Below are positions 5,948 through 44,830 of a DNA stretch of 64,000 bases, piece after piece. This stretch comes from a virus. Taxonomy: Duplodnaviria > Heunggongvirae > Uroviricota > Caudoviricetes. The notes beneath the pieces are model-generated. The model was not told the origin of the DNA, did no database searches, and saw only the letters and a list, made by a program, of their open reading frames with translations. Both the position numbers and the translations under genes were made by a program. Where the stretch lies: IMG/VR virus record IMGVR_UViG_3300045988_149737; one strand, given 5' to 3'. Positions within the stretch are counted from its first letter, which is position 1. Each line of letters begins with the position of its first letter.

Positions 5948-6023
5948 TCTGTCTGGTCTTGTTCTCTCAATGAATGTAAACTCACATGATGAATAAGTAA
6001 TTACTTATCTTTGTGAGGTTTTT

Positions 6024-7542: not shown

Positions 7543-8015
7543 AGATGATCGCTGCTGTTGGCCGTAACTATGAGATCGGCATAGCGAATGAACTCCCCTG
7601 GCGTTGTTCTACCGATCTGAAGCTATTTAAGAGACTCACCAAAAACGCCACTGTCGTTATGGGGCGTAAAACGATGGAAAGTCTCAAACGCCCTCTTCCA
7701 GAGCGTCATAACCTCGTTTTGACGCGCTCTCATGGCTTTGTACCAAATGGATTCTACCCTGCTGGTGTGGATGATGTGTTGCGATTACCAGAGCCTGTGT
7801 GGGTGATTGGCGGGGAACAAATTTACTCGCTATTCATGCCGCATGTTGAAGAGATTTGGCTCTCCCACATCGGCGTTGATGTACCAAACGCCGATGCATT
7901 CTTCCCGGCAAGCATGATGCGTAACTTAGGCTTTGTGCCTGTTGAAACAGCTTATACCCAACGAGCCAGCGAGGAAGAGCCTGGCTTTTCGCAGATCGTA
8001 TACAGAAGGTCGTAA
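7539..8015 (+). CDS. folA: dihydrofolate reductase
   Basis: 158 aa; collinear with bacterial FolA (IAAVGRNYEIG..LPW, MGRKTMESL..PLPER.NLVLTRS, WVIGGEQIY); start overlaps upstream stop. Confidence 0.9.
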   Translation: MKMIAAVGRNYEIGIANELPWRCSTDLKLFKRLTKNATVVMGRKTMESLKRPLPERHNLVLTRSHGFVPNGFYPAGVDDVLRLPEPVWVIGGEQIYSLFMPHVEEIWLSHIGVDVPNADAFFPASMMRNLGFVPVETAYTQRASEEEPGFSQIVYRRS

Positions 8016-8659
8016 TGGATTACCGGATTGGGATCACTGGTGCTCAGGGCAGTGGGAAAACAACCCTGGCTAAATATATCGACAAACATTACGGAATCCC
8101 TTACGTGGATGCTGGTGTCGGAAGTTTGATGAGCCGCCTCGGTGTTCGAGTAGGTGATTCTATGCCTCTATATGAGCGGCTTCAGATTCAAATGGAAATA
8201 GCAAAGCATATAGAGCTACTTACGCGTGGTGTTGAAGGCTTTGTTATCGATCGCACACCTGCTGATGTTATGGCCTACACGTTGGATTTGGTCGGCCATA
8301 CCAATGAAGATCGGTGTATTGAGTTAGCCCTCGATATCGAAAAGTTTTGCCACAAAACTGCTATTTCAAACTTTAACGCCATTGCTGGCTTACGCCCGGG
8401 AGTCGCTCTCTCAGAGCGAGATTACTTGCGATCACAACGAGCATCATTAGACCGTCTGTATGTCGCTCGTATTGATGCGTTGATGTGCGGGGAACTGACA
8501 AAAATTCACCTGCATCCGCAAAGGGGAGATCTGCAAACCTTCGTCGTTTCCAACCGATATCGCACAGTTGAAGCAAGAGCCAGATCAGTAATGAGAATGC
8601 TCGATAACGCGGTAGAAAAGATAGAAAACCTCTTCTGTGGCCGAGTGACCGTTCATTAG
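8015..8659 (+). CDS. P-loop NTPase, putative (deoxy)nucleotide kinase
   Basis: Walker A GITGAQGSGKTT near N-terminus; size and context (after DHFR/TS/RNR) fit a dNMP-kinase-like enzyme. Exact activity unknown. Confidence 0.55.
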   Translation: MDYRIGITGAQGSGKTTLAKYIDKHYGIPYVDAGVGSLMSRLGVRVGDSMPLYERLQIQMEIAKHIELLTRGVEGFVIDRTPADVMAYTLDLVGHTNEDRCIELALDIEKFCHKTAISNFNAIAGLRPGVALSERDYLRSQRASLDRLYVARIDALMCGELTKIHLHPQRGDLQTFVVSNRYRTVEARARSVMRMLDNAVEKIENLFCGRVTVH

Positions 8660-8720
8660 AAATTGTTCGCCTCTTCGACATTGCGACAATAAAACTCTCA
8701 AAATGGGTTAAGGATAAAAA

Positions 8721-9140
8721 ATGTTTAGTGAAATGTTGCTTGAAGATGAACTGGATCGGAAAACAACAGAGGCTTTGATTCGTGTAGCGGACGAACATTC
8801 CCGGTCGCTTATGAGCGATCGAGAGGCTCGTCTGGCTATTCGTGCCATATTCGAAACTGTGCAGGGGCTTGTTGGCGCACAAGTAGGTGAAGCCATTAAC
8901 ATCGCCATGTCTCAGTTCAGTGAAGACAGTAAAAAGCCTCTGTTTCCTATGCATTTGATGCTGGCTGGTGGCACGGTGCTTTATATCTCTGTTTGTCTGG
9001 ATAGCAACCAAATCAACATTCTCAACACGGCGTCAGGTAAGTGGAAAGATCCGGTTGTCTGTGAAACCAGTGAAGAAACTTTGAAAAAAGCGGCTCAATT
9101 TGTACGTAGCGCACTACTTAAGGGCGCTAAGAAGTTGTAA
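8721..9140 (+). CDS. hypothetical protein
   Basis: 139-aa ORF with RBS aaggataaaaa; no motif recognised. Confidence 0.45.
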   Translation: MFSEMLLEDELDRKTTEALIRVADEHSRSLMSDREARLAIRAIFETVQGLVGAQVGEAINIAMSQFSEDSKKPLFPMHLMLAGGTVLYISVCLDSNQINILNTASGKWKDPVVCETSEETLKKAAQFVRSALLKGAKKL

Positions 9141-9149
9141 GGAGTTCTG

Positions 9150-9707
9150 ATGACAACGATTGTTGCAGGCATCGATATCGAGTCTACGGGACTGGATTTC
9201 CTTGCTGGTCATAAAATTATTGAAATCGCAATTACCCGCTATGAACTGGAGACACAGAGACATATTGATAGTCTGGAGATGCGTTTTAACCCTCGCAGAA
9301 ACATAGATCCGAAAGCTCAAGCCGTTCATGGCATTTCATTGGAACAGCTCGCAGCTGAACCTTTGTTGTCAAATCATGCCAGCGAAATTGGCGCTTATAT
9401 GGGGGCATGTAGTGCGTGGATTGCTCATAACGGCGAAGCGTTTGATATACCATTTATTCGACACGAGTTTTCAGGGTATGGAGTAAGACTGCCAGACGTT
9501 CCTGTTATAGATACTATGTTATCGGGATTGTGGGCCACAGAAGACGGTAAACGTCCACGCCTTGAAGAGTTGGCCTTCTCTCTTGGCTTTATATACGATC
9601 ATGCCAAAGCACATAGTGCCTTATATGACACAAAATTAATGATGCAATGCTTCTTTAAGGCACGTAATAAGTACGGATTTTTTAAATTACCCTCTGAAAT
9701 TGTGTAA
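9150..9707 (+). CDS. DEDDh 3'-5' exonuclease (DnaQ/epsilon-like)
   Basis: Exo I GIDIESTGLD, Exo II HNGEAFDIPF, Exo III HSALYDT; RBS aaggag. Confidence 0.8.
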   Translation: MTTIVAGIDIESTGLDFLAGHKIIEIAITRYELETQRHIDSLEMRFNPRRNIDPKAQAVHGISLEQLAAEPLLSNHASEIGAYMGACSAWIAHNGEAFDIPFIRHEFSGYGVRLPDVPVIDTMLSGLWATEDGKRPRLEELAFSLGFIYDHAKAHSALYDTKLMMQCFFKARNKYGFFKLPSEIV

Positions 9708-9712
9708 AACAA

Positions 9713-9749
9713 AAGCCTACTTTAAAAAGTTTAAAGTAGGCTTTCTTTT
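9713..9749 (+). terminator. terminator (14-bp perfect stem)
   Basis: aagcctactttaaa-aag-tttaaagtaggctt followed by tctttt. Confidence 0.55.
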
Positions 9750-9865
9750 AAAGAACAGTCGCCTTTCAATCATTTCCTGCCTGTATTTAATACTTTTCCG
9801 CCTGATAGGTTTAGTCAAAATGTAGCCATCGAAACGCAAATGTAACCAAACAGAAGGAGACTTAC

Positions 9866-10675
9866 ATGAGTTCGGTTGAAAATGTAATGACAAATGATGA
9901 TCTGGACGAGCTGACAGCCATGTTGCAATCACTTGATGAACCAGTAAAAAAAGCTGCACAGGTTGAAAATACTGATGATATTGACGATCTGCTGCTCGGC
10001 CTAGATGCTGGCGTAGCCATGAGTTCTGATGATGTTGCCGAAGAACTGTTCAATGAAGAAAAAGCAGGTGATTTCAGCTCTGCTTTAAATGAGTTGGAGT
10101 TAGCGCATGAGCCTATAAACGTAATTAACGCTGAAAGTGTTGAAGCTGCCGAAAACGAGCCAGAACAATTGGGATTTATTGAGGTTGAAGAGTGTGTTGA
10201 GGTTAATGATGAATTAAAAGTTCAACAGTCAAATGATAGCAATACAAATAAAAAAGCTCGTACTGCAAGAGGTCCTCGTTTTACTTTAAGTGATAAAGAT
10301 GATTCGTTTTTCAATAAAGCGGGCTTAGAAAAAGATATTTTCTTAGACGCTTACGATAACGCGCCTGTCAAAGCAAAGGATAAGATATTAAACCTTCTTA
10401 ATTGGTTTAGCGGAGGTCCAGATATTAGTGTTTACACGGTAATTTCCATGAGACACCTTCTCACAGAAAAGAAGGCTACAAGTAATAGTATTAAGATTGC
10501 TTTAATGAGCAATCCAGAAAAACCGTATCCGCTTAACACTGCGTCAACTCAGGCTGGGCAAATGATGGCTGTATTTCCAGCGACAAGAATTGCTGTTAGA
10601 GACGGTGGAAATCTAACATTGAACGAAGAATCACCGATCGTTAAGAAGTTTGTCGCGGAGTACACTATTGGATGA
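9866..10675 (+). CDS. hypothetical protein with highly acidic N-terminal half
   Basis: 269 aa; first ~120 residues dominated by D/E; RBS aaggag. Confidence 0.5.
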   Translation: MSSVENVMTNDDLDELTAMLQSLDEPVKKAAQVENTDDIDDLLLGLDAGVAMSSDDVAEELFNEEKAGDFSSALNELELAHEPINVINAESVEAAENEPEQLGFIEVEECVEVNDELKVQQSNDSNTNKKARTARGPRFTLSDKDDSFFNKAGLEKDIFLDAYDNAPVKAKDKILNLLNWFSGGPDISVYTVISMRHLLTEKKATSNSIKIALMSNPEKPYPLNTASTQAGQMMAVFPATRIAVRDGGNLTLNEESPIVKKFVAEYTIG

Positions 10676-10751
10676 CGTTCCCCTACTGAAAATAAAGCCC
10701 ATAGAGAGCTTTATATTGCTGGGTAAGCCAATCACATACCCAGCACCACAA

Positions 10752-10797
10752 AAACGCGCCAGAGAGCTTCTCGTTTGCATTTCTGGCGCGTTTTATT
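10752..10797 (+). terminator. terminator-like hairpin
   Basis: aaacgcgccaga ... tctggcgcgttt 12-bp stem with ~18-nt loop, then tatttg. Confidence 0.45.
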
Positions 10798-10827
10798 TGA
10801 TTGCCAGACATAAAATCAAATGCAAAA

Positions 10828-10847
10828 ATAGGTAATCACTTACCTAT
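10828..10847. promoter_or_regulatory. palindrome ATAGGTAA-tcac-TTACCTAT (family 2 site)
   Basis: Perfect 8-bp arms, 11 nt upstream of the methyltransferase start; same family recurs at least 10 times in the window. Confidence 0.45.
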
Positions 10848-10858
10848 CGAGAAAGAAG

Positions 10859-11452
10859 ATGATTGCAGCCGAAAAAATCAAACAGCGAAAGCGCGACAAC
10901 TCTCTTCGTGACCTCTGGAGAACACCTGACTGGCTGTTTTCTGCCATTCAACGTTATCTTGGGGTGACATTTGATGTTGACGTTGCCTGCAACAAGGACA
11001 ATGCAAAGCTGCCTAATTTCATAGGCGTTGAGCGTGATGCTTTGAAATCTGAATGGGGACAGCCAGGTACAATTGCCTTCCTCAATCCCCCCTACTCCAA
11101 AATCTCCCCCTGGATTGATGCGGCTATACGTGAGCAGGCTCGCGGAGTTACAACAGTGATGCTAATTCCTCAATCCCTAGATACAAAGTGGTATGAGCGT
11201 GCAACAGAGTGTGCGAATGAGACGATTATTCTGTCTGGTGGCCGCGTAGCGTTTGTCGAGCCTGACGTCAATCTGGGTCAGGTAGAAGTAAACATCAACC
11301 CAGGTGGCAGTATGCTCGTTGTTTTTCGAGGATTCTGTCAGGACGCTGGGCACTCTATAAGCAAGATCCCTTTGGACGTCATGAAAAGTCTGGGAGGGTA
11401 TGATCCTGCGAATGTGATCAGGAAAAAAAGACCATCAAAGAAGGCTGCTTAG
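10859..11452 (+). CDS. DNA N6-adenine methyltransferase (phage Dam-type)
   Basis: TPDWLF near N-terminus and FLNPPYSK catalytic motif. Confidence 0.85.
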   Translation: MIAAEKIKQRKRDNSLRDLWRTPDWLFSAIQRYLGVTFDVDVACNKDNAKLPNFIGVERDALKSEWGQPGTIAFLNPPYSKISPWIDAAIREQARGVTTVMLIPQSLDTKWYERATECANETIILSGGRVAFVEPDVNLGQVEVNINPGGSMLVVFRGFCQDAGHSISKIPLDVMKSLGGYDPANVIRKKRPSKKAA

Positions 11453-11473
11453 TTTGTTCTGGCGTCTGTAATT

Positions 11474-11532
11474 AGCCTGCTTCTGTATATATAAATAACT
11501 ACATATTAATTATTAATATACGGAAGCAGGCT
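11474..11532. repeat. long inverted-repeat hairpin element, copy A
   Basis: agcctgcttctgtatata ... tatacggaagcaggct arms around an AT-rich loop; a second near-identical copy at 41167-41225. Confidence 0.6.
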
Positions 11533-11637
11533 GTTTTGTATCAGAGACTCCAGACCTGAACATCACTACAGAATCCACTAGAACCCCTTCCCAGACGCTT
11601 TAAAATCGATTTTATGAATCACTTTAAGGAAACTAAC

Positions 11638-11868
11638 ATGTCATACCCGACTAATGTCGTTGCGCTCGTAGAGAGCGATTTTCTGGCCCAGGCCCGTGAA
11701 ATGATGAAAGATCGCGAGCAGGCTTTCAACTTGTACGAATGGGCAATTAAGTGCTTGCATCTTGGGGAGCATCGCGAACTTGTTGAACAGCTTTTAGGTG
11801 AGTTGATTAACGAGGTGTTTGCCTTGAATGTTCAACTACATGGTCGAGAAAATAATCAATCGAAATGA
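11638..11868 (+). CDS. hypothetical small protein
   Basis: 76 aa from ATG at 11638 (RBS taaggaaa); ORF track begins 8 codons earlier without an RBS. Confidence 0.4.
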   Translation: MSYPTNVVALVESDFLAQAREMMKDREQAFNLYEWAIKCLHLGEHRELVEQLLGELINEVFALNVQLHGRENNQSK

Positions 11869-36099: not shown

Positions 36100-37659
36100 C
36101 TAATCTCGTTTCAGAACTCCAAAATCGAATGCTCCATCAATAGGCAATACACCTTCTGCAAAGCCAGGTGTGGTGTCGATGATGTGTTTTCGCTCATAAG
36201 AGTGAGACAACAGGTATTTGTTGCTAATGTCAATGAAATCAGTGATAAAACACACGTTTGCCTGATTTTTTTTTGCTCGTAAGCCACGACCGACACGCTG
36301 TCTCATTTCAACTTCTGCTTTCCCACCACCAGCAAGAATGACCGCACCAACGCTTGGCACATCAACACCGACATCCAGAATAGTCGAGCCTATTAAAACA
36401 TCTATTTCACCAGACGCTAAACTATTCAGCTTTGCTTGCCTTGTCGTCTGGTTAGATTCCCCATAGATGAAATCAACTTTAAGACCTGACTCCTTCATCA
36501 TCTCCATCAGGATTTGCCCGTGGCGTTTAAGACGAACCAGAGTCATGCAGTTGAGTGAATGTTGCTTATAAAGCAATGCCTCGCGCACTATGGCCTCGTT
36601 ACGTCCCAAATTATACACGATCCCCAACTGATAAGCCTTTTGGTAGGCGGTGCTCATACCAACTCTAAAATTGAGGTGTTTGTTGGCAAGTTCGGCCTTG
36701 ATTCTGGCCTCGTCTGGCTTGTAGGCAACTTTATGATAAAGGAAGTACGGCTTTGCCAGAATGCCTCGATCAATCAGGTACTTTTCTGTGACTTTAATTT
36801 CAATTCGCCCGGCCACCGCCATCAGGCGCATGTTGGCTTCCGTCGAATCCTTCATGAACGGCGTGGCTGTAAGCGCCAGACGATAGTCTGCGTTCACACA
36901 TAATCTGGCGATGTCATAGAAATTTGAGCCTGAAGACTCATGCGCCTCTTCCAGAATAAGAAGAGAGACACTTGAAAGGAAGCGTTTCACCAACTCCCGA
37001 CGTTTGAGGTGGTAGCTTTTCTTATCTGGTGTTGCATCGCGTGGTGGTTCTTCGAGGAAACTTGCAAGAGTTTGAACTGTAGCGACGTTGATATGTCGTG
37101 ATACCTGGAACTCACCCGAGCCAATGACTCCAACCTTTTGGTCTTTTAACCACGGTTCGCCATTTTCGGCGCGGTAGTCGATGGATCTCTGGAAGTTTTC
37201 GGCCATTTGAAACATCAGAACAGAGCGGGTTGTTAAAAATAATGTCATTCGACCGATACGTGCAGCTGCTTTGCAGGCAACGTTAGATTTCCCGCCACCA
37301 GTAGCGATCTGCGCAATCATCATTCCCTCTCGAACCAGTGTTTCCACAGTCTGATCCTGATACGCATAATCAGGATTGTATGGGAATGGGTTAACCGCTG
37401 GATTTGGTTTACCAAGCGCCGGGGCTTTGTCTTTGCGGATATGAACACATTTGATGCCCGCCTTGTTCAAGTTCGCCGCTACAGGCTTGGCAAAGCCAGC
37501 AGGGAACGAGTTTTTACTCCAGTTGAACATCGTGCTTGTGCCCTTCCAGTCGCCAGTCTCGACTTCGTAGCTCAACATTTGCTGCACCAGTTGCTTTACC
37601 TTGTCATCTGCGCCAGAAATAAGCGCATTTACTGCGTTAGATACAATCCGAACAGTCAT
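36100..37659 (-). CDS. superfamily 2 helicase (DEAD/DEAH-box-like)
   Basis: Walker A IATGGGKS, motif II LILEEAHE, motif III TATP, motif VI RVGRGLR; RBS aaggaaagagg. Confidence 0.8.
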   Translation of the reverse strand: MTVRIVSNAVNALISGADDKVKQLVQQMLSYEVETGDWKGTSTMFNWSKNSFPAGFAKPVAANLNKAGIKCVHIRKDKAPALGKPNPAVNPFPYNPDYAYQDQTVETLVREGMMIAQIATGGGKSNVACKAAARIGRMTLFLTTRSVLMFQMAENFQRSIDYRAENGEPWLKDQKVGVIGSGEFQVSRHINVATVQTLASFLEEPPRDATPDKKSYHLKRRELVKRFLSSVSLLILEEAHESSGSNFYDIARLCVNADYRLALTATPFMKDSTEANMRLMAVAGRIEIKVTEKYLIDRGILAKPYFLYHKVAYKPDEARIKAELANKHLNFRVGMSTAYQKAYQLGIVYNLGRNEAIVREALLYKQHSLNCMTLVRLKRHGQILMEMMKESGLKVDFIYGESNQTTRQAKLNSLASGEIDVLIGSTILDVGVDVPSVGAVILAGGGKAEVEMRQRVGRGLRAKKNQANVCFITDFIDISNKYLLSHSYERKHIIDTTPGFAEGVLPIDGAFDFGVLKRD

Positions 37660-37706
37660 AAACCTCTTTCCTTAGTGCCTTTTGTATGTTATTTGGCTAT
37701 TATAAT

Positions 37707-37722
37707 AAGTAAGTGATTACTT
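37707..37722. promoter_or_regulatory. palindrome AAGTAA-gtga-TTACTT (family 2) in divergent intergenic region
   Basis: Between minus-strand helicase and plus-strand ParB-like gene. Confidence 0.4.
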
Positions 37723-37741
37723 AGTGGATTGTAGCAATAAA

Positions 37742-38422
37742 ATGGATGTAAAAATCACGATTTTGCAGGTTGATGTTGCCAACCTTCGCCCGAATACCTG
37801 GAACACCAATTCGGTTGGTGCGCAGAATTTTGAAAAACTGAAAGGTTCTATCGAAAAATTGGGCTTTTTTAAGCCAATTTTGGCTCGTGAACTTGAAGAT
37901 GGATTTTTTGAAATCCTCGGCGGCGAACATCGCTGGCGTGCCGCTATTGAGCAAGGAATTTCAACGGTTCCGGTGCTTTCTGTGGGCAAAATTAGCGATG
38001 TCGTAGCTAAACAGATGTCACTGGTGGACAACGAGCGATACGGTGAAGACGACCAAATCGCATTGCAACGCTTCATTGAAGAAATTCAGTCAGAACTTGA
38101 CTATCAACTGTCTGAAATCGCCCCGTATGACGACGAAATCTCGATGGTTTTAGCAAAAGAGGCTGCAATCGACCTTGAAGCACTGGAGGCGTTGTCTCGT
38201 GGTAGTGATGAGCCTGTCGATACCGACAAACGAGAGAAAACCGAACGTGTGGGTGCGGAACATCAGACCATGCGCTTCAAAGTAACTTTCGATGCGTCAG
38301 ATCGTGTTGCAGAAACCATAAAAAACATCATCAAAGAGCAGGCTATTAACACCGGTAATGAAATGGAGAACGCTGGTGAGGCTCTGGTGTGGCTGGTCGA
38401 CTACTACAAGGAGCGTATGTAA
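37742..38422 (+). CDS. ParB/Srx-like N-terminal domain protein 1
   Basis: FEILGGEHRWRAAIEQGISTVPV matches the ParB N-domain arginine-rich motif; ATG at 37742 (ORF track GTG at 37724). Confidence 0.7.
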   Translation: MDVKITILQVDVANLRPNTWNTNSVGAQNFEKLKGSIEKLGFFKPILARELEDGFFEILGGEHRWRAAIEQGISTVPVLSVGKISDVVAKQMSLVDNERYGEDDQIALQRFIEEIQSELDYQLSEIAPYDDEISMVLAKEAAIDLEALEALSRGSDEPVDTDKREKTERVGAEHQTMRFKVTFDASDRVAETIKNIIKEQAINTGNEMENAGEALVWLVDYYKERM

Positions 38423-39090
38423 TGACCAAAAAGTTTGAAATCGTATATCGCGACCCGGCAGATCTTATTCCCTATGAGATGAATGCCAAAAAGCATGATG
38501 AACAGCAGATCAGAGATCTGGCCGCAGCCATTAAAAAGCGCGGATTTGACCAGCCAATTACGGTCGATAAGAACGACGTAATTATTACTGGCCACGGCCG
38601 CCGTGAGGCTGCAATTTTTGCTGGACTTGAGCGTGTACCGGTTATTGTTCGTGATGATCTGAGTGATGACGAGGTACGTGCAAAGCGCCTTGAAGATAAC
38701 CGACTTGCCAGCATTGATTACGATGCAATTAAGCTACAGAAAGAGCTTGAGTCGCTTGTTCTGGACGATATCGAGGTTTTCGGCTTTGAAGAGCGTGAGT
38801 TGAATGTTCTTGTTGGCAGTATGACAGAAGAAATGGACACCGACTCGCTAGTTATCGATCTTGGCGAAGAAACTAAACGACAGAAGGATGAACACACCGA
38901 GATCAGTCGCGAAGTTGCAGCGGAAGAAGTACGTGTTGTCGACGTATTGGGCTTTAAAACGCTTCCTGCTGGCTCTGCCATTGTTGTTGGTGATTTGCTT
39001 GCCCACATGGAAGAAATGACGGGAGAAAGCGGGGTAGACGCATTTGTGGCATATGCGGAGAAGATCTCTTCCGGGGAGATGGCTGCATGA
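38422..39090 (+). CDS. ParB/Srx-like N-terminal domain protein 2
   Basis: IITGHGRREAAIFAGLERVPVIV; taATG overlap with upstream gene, RBS aaggag. Confidence 0.7.
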   Translation: MTKKFEIVYRDPADLIPYEMNAKKHDEQQIRDLAAAIKKRGFDQPITVDKNDVIITGHGRREAAIFAGLERVPVIVRDDLSDDEVRAKRLEDNRLASIDYDAIKLQKELESLVLDDIEVFGFEERELNVLVGSMTEEMDTDSLVIDLGEETKRQKDEHTEISREVAAEEVRVVDVLGFKTLPAGSAIVVGDLLAHMEEMTGESGVDAFVAYAEKISSGEMAA

Positions 39091-39725
39091 GCAAATACAT
39101 CATCAACGTATCGTTTCAGACTCGCGTAAATAAAACCACGCGCACGCTGGAAATCGCCGAGTCGTTCGGGCTTGGTCTGGACGAAAAAGAGTGGGCGCTT
39201 TACGACAATCTGGAGCTGGAAGTAAAGCAGGGCGATGTGGTGTACATCACCGGCCAATCCGGTTCAGGTAAATCCGTTGTGTTGCGCGAGCTGCAACGCC
39301 AGATGAAGGATGAAGGGCTTTCTGTAGCTTCTATTGATGACTTTACCTTCGATAATGAGGTTAACGTCATTGATCAACTGGGCAAAACTACCAGTGATGC
39401 GCTTGGGTTGTTATCTATGGCCGGATTGAATGACGCCTATCTCTTTGTGCGTAAGCCATCCGAGATGTCTGACGGCCAGAAATACCGTCTCAAGATCGCC
39501 AAGCTGATCGAGTCCGGCGCGAAAGTCTGGGCTGCCGACGAATTTGGCGCTGTTCTCGACCGTGTAACCGCCCAGGTTGTGGCGTCGAACCTCCAGCGTG
39601 CCGCCCGTAAGGTTGGTGCGACGGTAATGGTGGCGACGACCCACGAAGACCTGAAGAACGCGCTGCGCCCGGATATGCAGATCACCAAGCACTACAAAGA
39701 ACGCGTGAAGGTGGAATATGCCTGA
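39087..39725 (+). CDS. soluble ABC-type ATPase
   Basis: Walker A GQSGSGKS, signature-like SDGQKYR, Walker B/D-loop VWAADEFGAVLD, H-loop TTHED; no permease gene adjacent. Confidence 0.7.
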   Translation: MSKYIINVSFQTRVNKTTRTLEIAESFGLGLDEKEWALYDNLELEVKQGDVVYITGQSGSGKSVVLRELQRQMKDEGLSVASIDDFTFDNEVNVIDQLGKTTSDALGLLSMAGLNDAYLFVRKPSEMSDGQKYRLKIAKLIESGAKVWAADEFGAVLDRVTAQVVASNLQRAARKVGATVMVATTHEDLKNALRPDMQITKHYKERVKVEYA

Positions 39726-39972
39726 TTTGAAGATCGTAGAGCTGAAGCCATCGAAAGAGGCTGACAACAACAACGTTGAAGTCATCCGCCTGCTGGAAGA
39801 AGCACTCCAGTACGCCAGAGAAGGCAAAAGCCAGAGCCTGGCACTGCTGATGATCAACAACGACGGCAGTGTGCTGGATTGCTGGCATAACGGTGGGCGT
39901 CCATACGTCATGGTTGGGGCGATGGAATCGCTTCGCCTGGACTTCATCAATGCCAATATCGAGCGTAGGTGA
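39718..39972 (+). CDS. hypothetical small protein
   Basis: 84 aa; start overlaps upstream stop. Confidence 0.4.
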   Translation: MPDLKIVELKPSKEADNNNVEVIRLLEEALQYAREGKSQSLALLMINNDGSVLDCWHNGGRPYVMVGAMESLRLDFINANIERR

Positions 39973-40868
39973 TCGACATGACAGGCATCATCATCAAACG
40001 CTACCGCCCGGAAGAGTTCCCGCGTCATCTGGACTTTCTGGAGCGTATGACCGTTACCAAAGGCACGGTTGAAGACTGGCACGCGCTGAAGTCGCTGCAC
40101 TACAAGACGGATGGTAAGCCGTTCGCGCCAACGTATTATCGCTGCGAACTGGACGACCGGCTGGTGGGCGTAGTGGTTATGGCTTACCCGAAACTGCTGC
40201 TGGCGCCTCGCCATCGCATGTTTCCTAAGCTGAAGCCAACCACCAATACCACCGTGGCCAACCAGTATTGGGGCCGGTACGTGAACAACAACTTTGCCGT
40301 GATCAGCCGTTCCGTTGTTGACACTCAGTACCGCGGTGTCGGCGTCTCCTATCGAATGATTAACCTGGTTAGCAGGATGCACGACCGGCCAATCATCGAG
40401 ATCCAGTCGTCGATGAGCAAATACAACCCGTTCGCCATGAAAGCAGGGTTCCAGTTCATCCGTCCGGAGCGTCCGAAGAGCTATGAGAGTGCGTTGCGCG
40501 TCTTCCAGCGTCATTTCCGTTCTGACCCTGGCGACAACGAAGCGATCGTCAAAGAGCTGTTCGCCATGAGTGAGTCTCGCCGTCGTCGTGCGCTGCGTGA
40601 TCTGGTCGCTGACTACCACAAGAACAGTTCCCTGGCCAAAGCCGGGCGTAATCGTGGCACGACGATTCAGGACATTGCCGACAGCCTGGTGGACGAGGCC
40701 AGCATTGTGAAGCTGCTCAAGGACATTCACAACCTGAGCTTTACGTCTCCGTTGTATGGTGTGTACCGAAACCCTGACTTTGGTCGTCGACTGCCTGACA
40801 CGCTGCCACTGCTGGCATTCGACAAACAACCTTTGGATAAACCGTTAGAAATTGCTTTACCGGCATAA
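39969..40868 (+). CDS. hypothetical protein, possible GNAT-like fold
   Basis: VVDTQYRGVGVSYRMINLV resembles the GNAT acetyl-CoA-binding motif; weak. GTG start, alternative ATG at 39978. Confidence 0.4.
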   Translation: MIDMTGIIIKRYRPEEFPRHLDFLERMTVTKGTVEDWHALKSLHYKTDGKPFAPTYYRCELDDRLVGVVVMAYPKLLLAPRHRMFPKLKPTTNTTVANQYWGRYVNNNFAVISRSVVDTQYRGVGVSYRMINLVSRMHDRPIIEIQSSMSKYNPFAMKAGFQFIRPERPKSYESALRVFQRHFRSDPGDNEAIVKELFAMSESRRRRALRDLVADYHKNSSLAKAGRNRGTTIQDIADSLVDEASIVKLLKDIHNLSFTSPLYGVYRNPDFGRRLPDTLPLLAFDKQPLDKPLEIALPA

Positions 40869-40877
40869 GGATTTGCC

Positions 40878-41144
40878 ATGACGTTAACCGATAAACAAAA
40901 GGACATCATCAAAACGCTCAATCTAGGTTATGAGCGAGGTCATCTACTTGATCTGGACGAATTGCTTGAAGTTTTGCCGTACAAGACAACAAAGCAAAGT
41001 ATCCAGTTCTCAATTCGCGCTCTGATAAAAAAGGGGCTGGTGGAGAAAGGGCATACGCGCCAACGCATTGACAATCGCTATCACCGCCGAACTCTTGGGT
41101 TAACCACTTTAGGTCGAGCCAAAGCGAAGTTACTGGTGATGTAA
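40878..41144 (+). CDS. hypothetical small protein, possible winged-helix DNA-binding
   Basis: 88 aa; RBS aagga. Confidence 0.4.
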   Translation: MTLTDKQKDIIKTLNLGYERGHLLDLDELLEVLPYKTTKQSIQFSIRALIKKGLVEKGHTRQRIDNRYHRRTLGLTTLGRAKAKLLVM

Positions 41145-41166
41145 TCGGTCTGGGAGCTTATTTAAA

Positions 41167-41225
41167 GACCTGCTTCTGTATATATAAATAATAAGTAACT
41201 TATTAAATATATACGGAAGCAGGCT
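41167..41225. repeat. long inverted-repeat hairpin element, copy B
   Basis: cctgcttctgtatata ... tatatacggaagcagg; near-identical arms to copy A at 11474-11532. Confidence 0.6.
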
Positions 41226-41340
41226 TAATAAGACATGCCCAGACCTAATTAAACACCCCAGAAAACAAGTTGGTTAGCAGATGCAGTAAACAAGTTGTTT
41301 TAGAGCGCATGGACGCGCTCTGTGTGTTTTAGAGGGATCT

Positions 41341-41973
41341 ATGACGGTCGAAAAAGACGAGGTAAAAACTCGCCTGACACCAGCGGAGTGGGCCGAAGCT
41401 GAAGCCAAATGGACGTCAGGCGAATATACACTCTCAAAGCTGGAGGAAGAGTACGGCATTCGTCGTGAAACACTCTCCAGACATTTCAAAAAGCGAGGAT
41501 TAGAGAAAGGCGCGGACTCTGTTGGGAAGATGGTTCGTGAGTCTCTTAAATCTGACGCAGAGCTTCGCGCTAAAGCCCGTGCGGAAAAGATAGAAGAACG
41601 TCGTACACGTTATGACGGCTGGGCGTATGCGTTGGGGCAGATGGTGATGGTCGAAGTCACTACGGCCAAACGTGAGGGTAAGCCTTTAGGGGCGATTGAG
41701 GATTCTCTCAAGAGCTTACAGAGAGCAAGTAATACCCTTGCAAAATGCTTTGAAGTTTCGTCCAAAGCATTGGGCATGGATCATGCGGAAAATGACGAGG
41801 AAGAAATTCCGAACCTGGTATTTGGTGAGCTTACGCCTTCCCAGGTGGCGAAATTACGTCAGGAAGACGACGAGCCTGAAATCATCGATGACGAATTGCT
41901 TGAGACGTTGGAAGAAGAAGCTCTAAGCGAATTTGATGCGACAGATGATGGAAGTGAAGGGGAGGACGAATAA
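41341..41973 (+). CDS. putative terminase small subunit
   Basis: 210 aa immediately upstream of terL; N-terminal helix-turn-helix-like segment; acidic C-terminus; two family-1 operators and a hairpin upstream. Confidence 0.55.
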   Translation: MTVEKDEVKTRLTPAEWAEAEAKWTSGEYTLSKLEEEYGIRRETLSRHFKKRGLEKGADSVGKMVRESLKSDAELRAKARAEKIEERRTRYDGWAYALGQMVMVEVTTAKREGKPLGAIEDSLKSLQRASNTLAKCFEVSSKALGMDHAENDEEEIPNLVFGELTPSQVAKLRQEDDEPEIIDDELLETLEEEALSEFDATDDGSEGEDE

Positions 41974-43229
41974 TGGCAATCCCGTCCTCGCTCAGTCTTG
42001 TGCAACTGCATTCTGGACAGATGAAAGTCTTCCAGTCTCCGCATCGATTTAAAGTTGTTTGTGCTGGTCGACGCTGGGGAAAATCCCGGTTGTCGATCTC
42101 CACTATTATTCGTGCGGCGGCAAAGAAAAAAAAGCAAAGGGTCTGGTATGTCGCTCCTACTTACCAGATGGCTCGCCAGATTTTGTGGGACGATCTACAG
42201 GAAGTTCTGCCTCGTAAGTGGGTTAGGAAAAAGAACGACACCACGATGACAATCGTGTTGAAGAACGGTTCGGAGATCGCTCTCAAAGGTGCTGATAAGC
42301 CTGACACTCTGCGCGGCGTAGCGTTGCATTTTGTAGTGCTTGATGAATTTCAGGATATGAAGGCTGACACCTGGTACAAGGTGTTACGACCTACTCTTTC
42401 ATCGACACGCGGCGGTGCACTGATCATTGGTACGCCAAAAGGCTTCTCGGAATTTCACAAACTGTGGACTATAGGCCAGAACGTAGAGCTGCAAAGAAAG
42501 GGACAGTGGAAGAGCTGGCAGTTTGTAACTGCCGATTCTCCGTTTGTGCCTACGGCGGAAATTGAAGCTGCTAAGAACGATATGGATCCTAAATCGTTCG
42601 CTCAGGAGTACCTGGCGAGCTTTGAGAACATGTCCGGGCGCGTTTACTACCCGTTCGATCGTAACGTGCATGTAAAACCGCTTCAGTTCAACCCTCGGTT
42701 GCCTATATGGGTAGGGCAGGACTTCAACATTGACCCGATGTCTTCCGTAATTTTGCAACCTCAGCCAAATGGTGAGCTATGGGCAATTGATGAATTGGTG
42801 CTCTTTTCCTCTAACACGGCAGAAGTTTGTGATGAGCTTGAGAGACGCTTCTGGCGCTGGAAATCACAGATAACGGTATTTCCAGATCCGGCAGGTGCTT
42901 ATCGCCAACATGCTCGCGGGGAGTCTGACGTCGACATATTCAAAGAGAAGGGATTCTTACGTGTCGATTATTCGAAAAAGCACCCGCCAATTGCGGATCG
43001 TGTTAATGCTGTTAACCGAATGCTGATGACTGCATCTGGAGATATCCGGCTGTATATCGATCCGAAGTGCAAGCATTTGATTGATTCACTGGAAAAAGTC
43101 ATCTACAAGCCTGGAACACGAGATATGGATAAGACAGGTGGCATTGAGCATAGTGCAGACGCATTGGGCTATCCAGTACATCGTAGGTATCCAGTCAAAA
43201 ACCGTGTTATTCTTGGTGGTTCTCGATAG
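41973..43229 (+). CDS. terminase large subunit
   Basis: 418 aa; Walker A-like VVCAGRRWGKS, Walker B VVLDEF; followed by the portal gene. Confidence 0.85.
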   Translation: MAIPSSLSLVQLHSGQMKVFQSPHRFKVVCAGRRWGKSRLSISTIIRAAAKKKKQRVWYVAPTYQMARQILWDDLQEVLPRKWVRKKNDTTMTIVLKNGSEIALKGADKPDTLRGVALHFVVLDEFQDMKADTWYKVLRPTLSSTRGGALIIGTPKGFSEFHKLWTIGQNVELQRKGQWKSWQFVTADSPFVPTAEIEAAKNDMDPKSFAQEYLASFENMSGRVYYPFDRNVHVKPLQFNPRLPIWVGQDFNIDPMSSVILQPQPNGELWAIDELVLFSSNTAEVCDELERRFWRWKSQITVFPDPAGAYRQHARGESDVDIFKEKGFLRVDYSKKHPPIADRVNAVNRMLMTASGDIRLYIDPKCKHLIDSLEKVIYKPGTRDMDKTGGIEHSADALGYPVHRRYPVKNRVILGGSR

Positions 43230-43255: not shown

Positions 43256-44830
43256 ATGGAATTGAACGACAAACAAATTAAGGATCTGGTGGCGCGACGC
43301 CACCCGGAATACGAAAAGAAAAAAGAACATTGGGACTTCCTCGCCAGCACTTACGCTGGCGGGCGTGGTTGGTTTACAGACAATATCTTTCGTTACTTTA
43401 AAGAGGGAGATCAGGAGTTTAAGGAGCGAGTTGAGCGTGCTTATCGCTTCAACCACACTCGTGAGGTGGTAAACCTCATCAACAAATATCTCTTTAAAGA
43501 AGACATTCATAGAAATATCGAAGAGGCACCAGAGCAGATCCGCAATTTCTGGAAACGTGCGACTCGCCAGAATGCCTCTATTGACTCATTTATGGCCGCT
43601 ATTGATTTGCAGTCGTCTATTTACGGTCGCATATGGGTTGTTGTCGATAGCACGATGAGTGGTGATGTTGAGTCAGTAGCTGACGAGAAAAAGAAAGATG
43701 CTCGCGCCTACGCCTACTGGATTTCACCTCAGCAAATGCTGGATGTGGCATGGGACGACGACGGGAATATGTTGTGGGCGTTAATTGTGGAAGTCGCTCG
43801 TGATGACGAAGATCCTTTTACTTCTACAGGTCAGGAATACCAACGTTATCGTCTGTGGACACAAAACGAGTGGTATCTGTTCCGTGAGGAAGTGAAGAAG
43901 GGCGCTGGTGGAGCAGGTCGCCGTCAGGCAAAAGTTATTTTAGAGGACAGCGGCGCGCATAATCTCGGCGTAGTTCCTGTGTTTCCTGTTGATTGTATTG
44001 GAGAAAGTGAATCACCGTATTTCAGCCCATCGTTGATCGATGATATCGCTTATCTTGATCGTGCGGTTGCAAACTATCTGTCAAACCTTGATGCCATTAT
44101 TCAGGATCAGACATTTAGCCAGTTGGCTATACCGGTACAGTCGCTTTTACCTGGTGATGAAAACCACACTAAAGTGCTTGAAATGGGCACAAAGCGAGTC
44201 TTCACCTACGATTCTGAAGGTGGAAACCAGCCGTTTTATCTGTCACCAGACCCGAAACAAGCTCAGATGATCATCACTACGATTAAGACGGTGATTAACG
44301 AAATCTACCATTCAGTTGGTGTAGCTGGTGAGCGAACGAAGCAGGACAACGCACAGGGAATCGATAATTCATCTGGTGCCGCAAAAATGTATGACTTCCA
44401 GCGTGTAAATAGCTTGCTTGTCACAAAAGCAGAGCGTCTGGAAAGGGCTGAACGCCAAATCATGCTACTGGTTGCGAAATGGATGGGGGTAGATCTGAAC
44501 GAAGACCACTCTTTAATTGCGTATCCAGAAAGTTTCGATATTCGTGGCCTTACTGATGAATTTTCTGTTGCCGAGAAACTGTCATTACTTCAGGCACCGG
44601 ACTCTGTACGTCGTCACCAGATGGAAATGCTTATTGAGAAGATTTTCCCGAACATTACTGAGGCGATGAAAAAGGAATTTGATAAAGATCTCTTGAATTT
44701 TCCGCCAAAAAATGATCTAAATACCCTTGAAAATAAGTCAGTACTTACTTATGATCGTGGTGCAGCCCAAGAAAGCGGGCAAGATCAACCCCGAGGGAAT
44801 GGGGACTCATCTACTCAAGAGAACGAGTGA
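43256..44830 (+). CDS. portal protein
   Basis: 524 aa between terL and scaffold/capsid genes; assignment by position and size. Confidence 0.7.
   Translation: MELNDKQIKDLVARRHPEYEKKKEHWDFLASTYAGGRGWFTDNIFRYFKEGDQEFKERVERAYRFNHTREVVNLINKYLFKEDIHRNIEEAPEQIRNFWKRATRQNASIDSFMAAIDLQSSIYGRIWVVVDSTMSGDVESVADEKKKDARAYAYWISPQQMLDVAWDDDGNMLWALIVEVARDDEDPFTSTGQEYQRYRLWTQNEWYLFREEVKKGAGGAGRRQAKVILEDSGAHNLGVVPVFPVDCIGESESPYFSPSLIDDIAYLDRAVANYLSNLDAIIQDQTFSQLAIPVQSLLPGDENHTKVLEMGTKRVFTYDSEGGNQPFYLSPDPKQAQMIITTIKTVINEIYHSVGVAGERTKQDNAQGIDNSSGAAKMYDFQRVNSLLVTKAERLERAERQIMLLVAKWMGVDLNEDHSLIAYPESFDIRGLTDEFSVAEKLSLLQAPDSVRRHQMEMLIEKIFPNITEAMKKEFDKDLLNFPPKNDLNTLENKSVLTYDRGAAQESGQDQPRGNGDSSTQENE

Follow-up and report, generated by a model that had tools for sequence, protein, structure and literature searches.

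What is a run of tightly packed genes for two ParB-like proteins, an ABC-type ATPase and a GNAT-like protein doing directly upstream of the terminase genes of a tailed virus? The question is raised by positions 37,742 to 40,868 of a 64,000-nucleotide (nt) stretch of the IMG/VR record IMGVR_UViG_3300045988_149737 (Caudoviricetes), the whole of which we call the window and which represents an SSU5-like phage-plasmid. An earlier note on this DNA had seen here a cluster of four translationally coupled genes in an unusual order and had not recognised it as a described system. Judged by our comparative analysis, the module is instead a split, ParB-duplicated member of an ABC-GNAT system that has been predicted computationally. 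Indeed, all module proteins assign to populated PHROGs, public records name both the ATPase and the GNAT protein in COG2401 style as 'ABC-type ATPase fused to/with predicted acetyltransferase domain', and acylation of a DNA nucleobase by a GNAT together with an ABC ATPase was predicted as early as 2013 (Iyer, Zhang, Burroughs & Aravind 2013, as relayed in section 3.4.7 of PMC7824862).

Direct reading of the ATPase identified a Walker A motif (GQSGSGKS), the ABC signature (MSDGQ), a Walker B motif (VWAADE), a D-loop (LD) and an H-loop (ATTHE), and conservation of these catalytic motifs across 66 orthologues is 95% or higher. The protein matches PF00005 ABC_tran at E 5e-13, whereas its match to CbiA/ParA reaches only E 1e-3, below the cutoff. 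Together with a Q-loop, it therefore shares the full motif set of the nucleotide-binding domain (NBD) of ABC transporters, yet it has no permease or substrate-binding partner and its conserved partners are ParB and GNAT proteins. Family scans of the neighbouring genes returned no membrane or permease family match, and no permease or substrate-binding gene was found in the operon, in line with the earlier description of an ABC-type ATPase that lacks a permease. On these features, the ATPase is a bona fide stand-alone ABC NBD and not a ParA. We also considered a component of a defence system (BREX, Dnd, MADS or Septu) and rejected it, the PADLOC matches of the ATPase being weak generic P-loop similarity and the other module proteins matching no component of these systems.

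An exhaustive profile search with the family of the GNAT protein (299 amino acids, aa) recovered many proteins of ~450-500 aa in which the N-terminal half is ABC_tran and the C-terminal half is this GNAT; the named members of this long fused form belong to Nitrososphaerota and Thermoproteota archaea. The GNAT profile matches the fused proteins at E 1e-28 to 1e-33, and the window ATPase aligns over its full length with their ATPase halves at E 1e-46 to 1e-60, compared to ~1e-13 for transporter NBDs in the PDB. A short fused form (~365-390 aa, Pfam ABC_tran plus Acetyltransf_1/7) is carried by Rhodococcus/Gordonia phage Jace (gp86), Arthrobacter phage EastWest (gp75) and a Vibrio T4-like phage. 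In hhalign comparisons the long and short fused families align with 100% probability (E 5e-47), and the window GNAT family aligns with the short form with 90.9% probability via HY and RxVVxxxYxGxG motifs. Both types are abundant in IMG/VR, with at least 585 matches for the short fused form and at least 471 for the SSU5-type GNAT. Furthermore, three viral contigs (L223, L243 and L263) that carry SSU5-like winged helix-turn-helix (wHTH), TerS, TerL and portal genes have a fused ABC-GNAT gene after ParB1 and ParB2, in the same slot. By homology, these comparisons show that the ATPase and the GNAT protein correspond to two halves of one conserved enzyme, a split COG2401-type ABC-GNAT. One of the fused ABC-GNAT proteins (P0285) bears an intein with a LAGLIDADG domain.

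The example given for the predicted GNAT plus ABC system in PMC7824862 is Tenacibaculum phage pT24, and the window ATPase matches pT24 gp038 at E 3e-11. Like that system, the window has the two specifically related domains in a viral context. It differs in that the domains are encoded by separate genes with a variable gene between them, that its GNAT has an extra C-terminal domain of ~130 aa, and that two ParB paralogues precede the pair. We found no experimental work in the literature on this module or on base acylation by an ABC-GNAT, and literature searches on COG2401/MK0520 and on SSU5 with ParB and ABC returned nothing relevant.

The module and its surroundings are laid out as follows.

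36100-37659, - strand: SF2 (UvsW-like) helicase gene, divergent; ResIII, DEAD and Helicase_C matches, phrog_16
37742-38422, + strand: ParB1, 226 aa; PF02195 ParB_N (E 3e-13), phrog_723 (E 2e-79)
38422-39090, + strand: ParB2, 222 aa; ParB_N (E 1.5e-8), phrog_930 (E 1e-112)
39087-39725, + strand: ABC-type ATPase, 212 aa; PF00005 ABC_tran, phrog_293
39718-39972, + strand: open reading frame (ORF) of 84 aa; phrog_796 (E 1e-46)
39978 (ATG, 296 aa) or 39969 (GTG, 299 aa) to 40868, + strand: GNAT-fold protein; phrog_886, no Pfam match
40878-41144, + strand: basic winged-helix-like protein, 88 aa; phrog_900 (E 6e-45)
41147-41245: nested palindrome of 99 bp, between the 88-aa winged-helix gene and TerS
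41341-41973, + strand: TerS-like DNA-binding protein; phrog_867 (E 2e-100)
41973-43229, + strand: TerL; Terminase_6N (E 1e-9), phrog_10250/phrog_2
43256-44830: portal, assigned by position and synteny

All four genes that had been listed for 37742-40868 are present on the + strand with the ends given for them, and the module does lie upstream of TerS and TerL. Their tight coupling is also real. ParB1 and ParB2 overlap by 1 nt (TAATG), ParB2 and the ATPase gene join at ATGA, the ATPase gene and the 84-aa ORF overlap by 8 nt, and the GNAT gene begins either at GTGA or at an ATG 6 nt downstream, which has a Shine-Dalgarno sequence. The count of four, however, did not hold, as the interval contains five genes, the 84-aa ORF having been overlooked, and a conserved sixth gene was missed beyond it, that of the 88-aa winged-helix protein, which follows the GNAT gene after a 9-nt spacer. 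A 472-aa antisense ORF (39411-40829, - strand) runs across the end of the ATPase gene, the 84-aa ORF and the GNAT gene; because the protein family on the sense strand is strongly conserved, we rejected it as a gene and regard it as most probably a shadow ORF. When the region was scanned for sigma-70 promoters, sites were no more numerous than expected by chance.

Escherichia phages CMS-2020a and Cyrano share 95% identity with the 3.5 kb around the module, Salmonella phage SSU5 shares 89% and Klebsiella phage-plasmids share ~82%. The order helicase (- strand), ParB1, ParB2, ABC, variable gene, GNAT, (wHTH), TerS, TerL and portal is kept in all of 28 reference-genome loci. These come from gamma-, alpha- and beta-proteobacteria, mostly on contigs of ~100-110 kb, with taxa including Enterobacterales, Xenorhabdus, Morganella, Acinetobacter, Halomonas, Sphingomonads, Rhizobiales, Paracoccus and Paraburkholderia, and GNAT identity drops to 36% among them. 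ParB1 is kept in every locus that extends far enough upstream (26/26), as is the SF2 helicase in every SSU5-like locus reaching that far. Isolates that bear the module include Pseudomonas nickie-like, Rhizobium RHEph10-like, Stenotrophomonas and Xanthomonas siphoviruses of 105-120 kb.

The 84-aa ORF is probably an accessory outside the core module. Cyrano lacks it and Klebsiella relatives have a 183-aa ORF in its place, and the gap between ATPase and GNAT genes is a variable insertion hotspot that holds a 183-190-aa ORF, a Tad2-like (anti-Thoeris) domain, a thioredoxin, a HAD_PNKP phosphatase or a BTLCP protease in other relatives (L002, L006, L008 and L014-L026). The 88-aa protein is strongly basic, with an isoelectric point (pI) of 10.2, and weakly matches Sta1/Lrs14 wHTH proteins; its homologues hold the same position, directly after the GNAT gene, in distant loci. 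It may be a regulator or an accessory that recognises the packaging site. Across Pfam, NCBIfam and PADLOC, the 299-aa, 84-aa and 88-aa proteins gave only weak wHTH matches.

We then turned to the structure of the GNAT protein, which is very basic (pI 9.8). An AlphaFold2 model built with 43 homologues was confident, with a predicted local distance difference test (pLDDT) score of 88.7, and places the GNAT core at about residues 25-165, with a helical/beta domain on its C-terminal side. The family alignment contains a motif-A-like stretch (RxVVDTxYRGxGVSYR) and invariant H44-Y45 and E144. The protein thus combines the GNAT fold with the motif-A pyrophosphate-binding loop (R/Q-x-x-G-x-G/A), which bears out its earlier assignment as GNAT-like. 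From this motif conservation, and from the CoA-transferase and PanD neighbours seen in relatives, we infer that it would bind acyl-CoA and transfer the acyl group to an amine. Matches of the 299-aa protein to AlkD-like structures in the PDB were insignificant (E about 1) and were disregarded.

The acceptor of such a transfer is less easily read from the model. A fold search of BFVD with the GNAT protein returned weak generic GNAT or Mom matches with a Mom protein at the top, and Mom is structurally no nearer to it than protein or polyamine GNATs; the acceptor cannot be identified from the fold alone. The Mom protein of phage Mu is a GNAT able to acylate adenine in DNA (PMC7824862), and like the window protein it has the GNAT fold, which in our case would act on DNA by hypothesis, and is a late gene of a temperate phage. 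It differs in needing neither an ABC ATPase nor a ParB, and its similarity to the window protein is no higher than that of generic GNATs. Pfam Mom (PF25680) was not matched by the window GNAT protein.

The two ParB/Srx-like proteins are paralogous, as had been proposed (33% identity over 116 aa, E 5e-10), and both are acidic (pI 4.55 for ParB1 and 4.53 for ParB2). Motif conservation in 65 orthologues gave GGxHR as box II and DNxRYGxDD as box III of ParB1. Box II of ParB2 is GHGRR, and in both proteins this box is conserved, non-canonical and distinct from GERRxRA. In the model of ParB2 (pLDDT 81.6) an N-terminal domain of the ParB/Srx nucleotide-binding type is joined to a helical, acidic C-terminal half. 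No helix-turn-helix (HTH) DNA-binding domain was detectable in either protein by family scans or in the ParB2 model, and the N-terminal ParA-binding motif is absent from both sequences as read directly. With classical ParABS the module therefore shares the ParB/Srx N-terminal fold, whereas its adjacent ATPase is of the ABC type rather than ParA and its ParBs depart in box II and lack the HTH and ParA-binding motif. The ParA-like partition gene of SSU5 lies ~30 kb from the ParB genes, and no homologue of it was found in the 64-kb window. The earlier view that this is not a classical parAB system was thus borne out.

The nearest families to ParB2 other than its own are the ParB portions of phage ParB-methyltransferase fusions (phrog_498), which match ParB2 at E 5e-32 and ParB1 at E 4e-17, with a PADLOC MTase_II match at E 3e-17. 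These fusions are commonly late or packaging-proximal genes too, but the window ParBs are separate proteins with no methyltransferase domain. ParB-fold domains are widely fused to DNA methyltransferases in phages, and to an acetyltransferase in bacteria, with varied NTP specificity (bioRxiv 10.1101/2025.10.10.680097), and they co-occur with the cytosine carboxymethyltransferase CmoX (PMC12783734). Moreover, a small phage ParB-like protein without a DNA-binding domain is the required activator of a DNA T-dioxygenase, 5mYOX (PMC13229309). That protein has a nucleotide-binding and a C-terminal domain and its gene adjoins that of the enzyme; ParB2 has the same overall build in its model. The comparison differs in that the partner is a dioxygenase and not an acyltransferase, that there is no ATPase, and that there is one ParB and not two. 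In distant relatives of the module, a Cys-rich zinc-ribbon-like ORF of ~60 aa (F[ED]DC..C...C..C..GE.FEE) stands between ParB1 and ParB2 (L011, L012, L014-L018, L020, L022, L024 and L025), and in alphaproteobacterial relatives an ORF of ~125-140 aa stands between ParB2 and the ATPase; the window has neither.

Does the association of these genes hold outside the SSU5-like clade? The co-occurrence analysis that the earlier note had proposed was extended from the 28 reference loci to 73 distinct viral loci that carry the short fused form, and the module recurs across these genomes. Seed searches placed a ParB-like gene at position -1 of the fused gene in 44 of 69 loci and at -2 in 4 more, and of 53 neighbours upstream on the same strand, 28 match Pfam ParB_N. 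In 63 loci the first three genes downstream on the same strand were compared with Pfam, which identified Terminase_6N in 27, Terminase_3 in 11, TerL_ATPase in 4 and GpA_ATPase in 3, as well as small terminases and portals. Most sampled loci thus have a large terminase gene no more than three genes downstream, and these terminases span at least four Pfam families. For example, one contig (L200) reads ParB, ABC-GNAT, DUF5681 and Terminase_3, another (L201) reads GpA terminase, ParB, ABC-GNAT and CoA-transferase, and in phage Jace gp85 (ParB_N) precedes gp86 (ABC plus GNAT). On contigs of archaeal viruses the long fused gene comes directly after TerL (spacing -18 to +8 nt) and frequently closes the provirus; its upstream neighbour is Terminase_6N in 15 of 29. 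As judged from these neighbourhoods, the data show that the linkage of ABC-GNAT to ParB and terminase is independent of the phage backbone. An order of ParB, ABC/GNAT, TerS and TerL is thus widespread and not unusual as first supposed, and since ParB and ABC/GNAT stand beside the terminase in other lineages, the module is mobile and recurrent rather than a peculiarity of this genome. None of the homology searches returned its genes as ordinary terminase-associated ParB-nuclease or HNH-type accessory genes with known roles.

Further clues to chemistry and target come from the neighbours and fusion partners of the ABC-GNAT. In Jace, the two genes after ABC-GNAT encode a family III CoA-transferase and an aspartate decarboxylase (E 2e-33), and several metagenomic loci have this pair downstream of ABC-GNAT too, with Asp_decarbox in 4 and CoA_transf_3 in 3; in addition, a CoA_trans gene follows in L201 and an Asn-synthase-type amidotransferase gene lies nearby in L204. 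This suggests that some ABC-GNAT versions make their own acyl donor, plausibly beta-alanyl-CoA. A 1260-aa fusion of a family-B polymerase with ABC-GNAT (PolB-ABC-GNAT) occurs on at least 24 virus-like contigs beside PrimPol, RecA and a 5'-3' exonuclease, a viral replication module (loci L032-L035, positions 8001-11783), and in other loci (among L042 and L043) ABC-GNAT lies beside PolB or Pol III alpha. One stand-alone GNAT homologue adjoins a Mom-like protein and methyltransferases, with its cognate ABC gene upstream.

What, then, might the module do? The earlier note had offered DNA modification, a packaging accessory or anti-defence as guesses, and the comparative evidence favours the first. 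Our preferred reading, held tentatively and at a little below an even chance, is that the module encodes a ParB-assisted, ATP-gated and acyl-CoA-dependent transferase that works late in infection and modifies bases of the phage's own DNA, either ahead of packaging or in the course of it. The ABC domains would dimerise on ATP and clamp or remodel DNA, and the basic GNAT, whose charge contrasts with that of the acidic ParBs in a way that we count in favour of DNA acylation, would acylate an exocyclic amine on a base. Because this phage has no donor-synthesis genes, the enzyme would probably draw on an acyl-CoA of the host, for instance acetyl-CoA. By analogy with the ParB-like proteins of other phage DNA-modifying enzymes, ParB1 and ParB2 may act as nucleotide-dependent activators or loaders, and the modification would shield phage DNA from host restriction.

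Several points weigh against this preferred reading. The SSU5-like backbone is wholly syntenic, so the clade alone cannot show that these genes work together, and the argument rests on the other lineages. We found no literature report that the DNA of SSU5-, nickie- or RHEph10-type phages is modified or resists restriction, and no acyl-donor genes lie beside the module in this phage. With a non-canonical box II and no DNA-binding domain in the ParBs, DNA loading is an assumption. Finally, the linkage to the terminase fits a role in packaging equally well. A more specific form of DNA acylation, which we regard as possible but doubtful, would have ParB1 and ParB2 form a heteromeric, nucleotide-switched loader that places an ABC-GNAT clamp on replicated DNA by the packaging site, yielding an undescribed N-acyl base, for example N-acetyl here and beta-alanyl in Jace-type phages with PanD and CoA-transferase. 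If so, packaging-coupled DNA hypermodification would be common to bacterial and archaeal tailed viruses, and these enzymes would form only the second class of GNAT DNA-base modifiers after Mom.

A packaging accessory is the first alternative, in which the ParBs recognise or organise the packaging site and ABC-GNAT acylates terminase, portal or TerS, or controls the initiation or termination of packaging. The adjacency to TerS and TerL is strong and independent of the backbone, in archaeal proviruses the end of TerL shares a few nt with the fused gene, and a conserved winged-helix gene lies between GNAT and TerS. The same interval holds the 99-bp palindrome, with outer arms GGTCTGGG/CCCAGACC, inner arms CCTGCTTC/GAAGCAGG and, between these, an AT-rich palindromic core with its centre at 41197. 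Enterobacterial relatives keep this palindrome, and the GenBank records of SSU5 and Cyrano are linearised inside it, at the equivalent of about position 41205 of the window. This element may be a protein-binding site or a packaging (pac/cos) site, and its conservation and its position between module and TerS speak for a packaging role. Such a role, however, leaves the PolB fusions, the adjacency to polymerases and the Mom/methyltransferase neighbourhoods unexplained, as well as the recruitment of PanD and CoA-transferase, a dedicated unusual acyl donor being typical of hypermodification pathways. DNA-modification genes are, moreover, commonly found just upstream of terminase genes, so that the position of the module also fits them. 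We consider a packaging accessory unlikely.

A second alternative is that the acceptor is not DNA but RNA or tRNA, polyamines co-packaged with the DNA, or a host protein in takeover or anti-defence, with the ParBs as nucleotide-sensing regulators. ATPase-GNAT pairs that act on RNA do exist. TmcA/NAT10 is an ATPase-coupled GNAT that acetylates cytidine in RNA and, by functional analogy, likewise couples an NTPase to a GNAT on a nucleobase amine; its ATPase, however, is a RecD-like helicase domain and not an ABC NBD, its substrate is RNA, and homology is limited to the GNAT fold. Anti-defence genes such as the Tad2-like gene gather in the slot beside the GNAT, and proteins of the ParB fold bind a range of NTPs and also serve in roles other than on DNA (bioRxiv 10.1101/2025.10.10.680097). 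The ParB-fold partners, the polymerase fusions and the terminase linkage nevertheless point to DNA, no PADLOC or anti-defence family matched, and the module has no tRNA-binding or helicase domain, so we give a non-DNA acceptor only a small chance. Last, that ParB1 and ParB2 are partition or silencing proteins of the phage-plasmid, fortuitously beside an unrelated ABC/GNAT pair, is very improbable, for although public records label them as ParB partition proteins and two ParB copies in related AB-group phage-plasmids have been read as partition genes (PMC7969092), they have neither an adjacent ParA nor an HTH or ParA-binding motif, and ParB precedes ABC-GNAT also in virulent or non-plasmid phages (nickie, Jace) and in most sampled metagenomic loci.

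If DNA acylation is what the module does, then a new chemical class of DNA modification, in which acyl-CoA is used to make N-acyl bases, would be encoded by a set of genes that is very common among viruses. This set is found in clinically frequent phage-plasmids of Enterobacteriaceae, in actinophages and in archaeal proviruses, and recurs in hundreds of unrelated viruses. DNA acylation could have consequences for restriction evasion and for sequencing and base-calling of such elements, could offer a new enzyme for biotechnology, and would widen the part that ParB-fold proteins are now emerging to play in the activation of DNA-modifying enzymes. As SSU5/Cyrano-type elements in E. coli and Salmonella are genetically tractable, the question is directly testable.

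Some smaller elements around the module were also seen. A conserved GC-rich hairpin with a T-run (GAGCGCATGGACGCGCTC TGTGTGTTTT) lies at 41301-41331, directly before the ribosome-binding site of TerS, which suggests a point of termination or regulation between the ParB-to-wHTH operon and the packaging genes. Small palindromes at 37702-37723, 41188-41205 and 5994-6007 have the half-site TAAGTAA/TTACTTA in common, and ATAATAAGTAA is found ahead of the ParB1 operon and again ahead of TerS; the pattern of the gapped palindrome has 2 occurrences in 64 kb compared to 0 expected. These palindromes may form a common operator. In four of the loci (L007, L012, L021 and L028) TerL is split by ~0.9-1.3 kb, which suggests insertion of an intein or a homing endonuclease.

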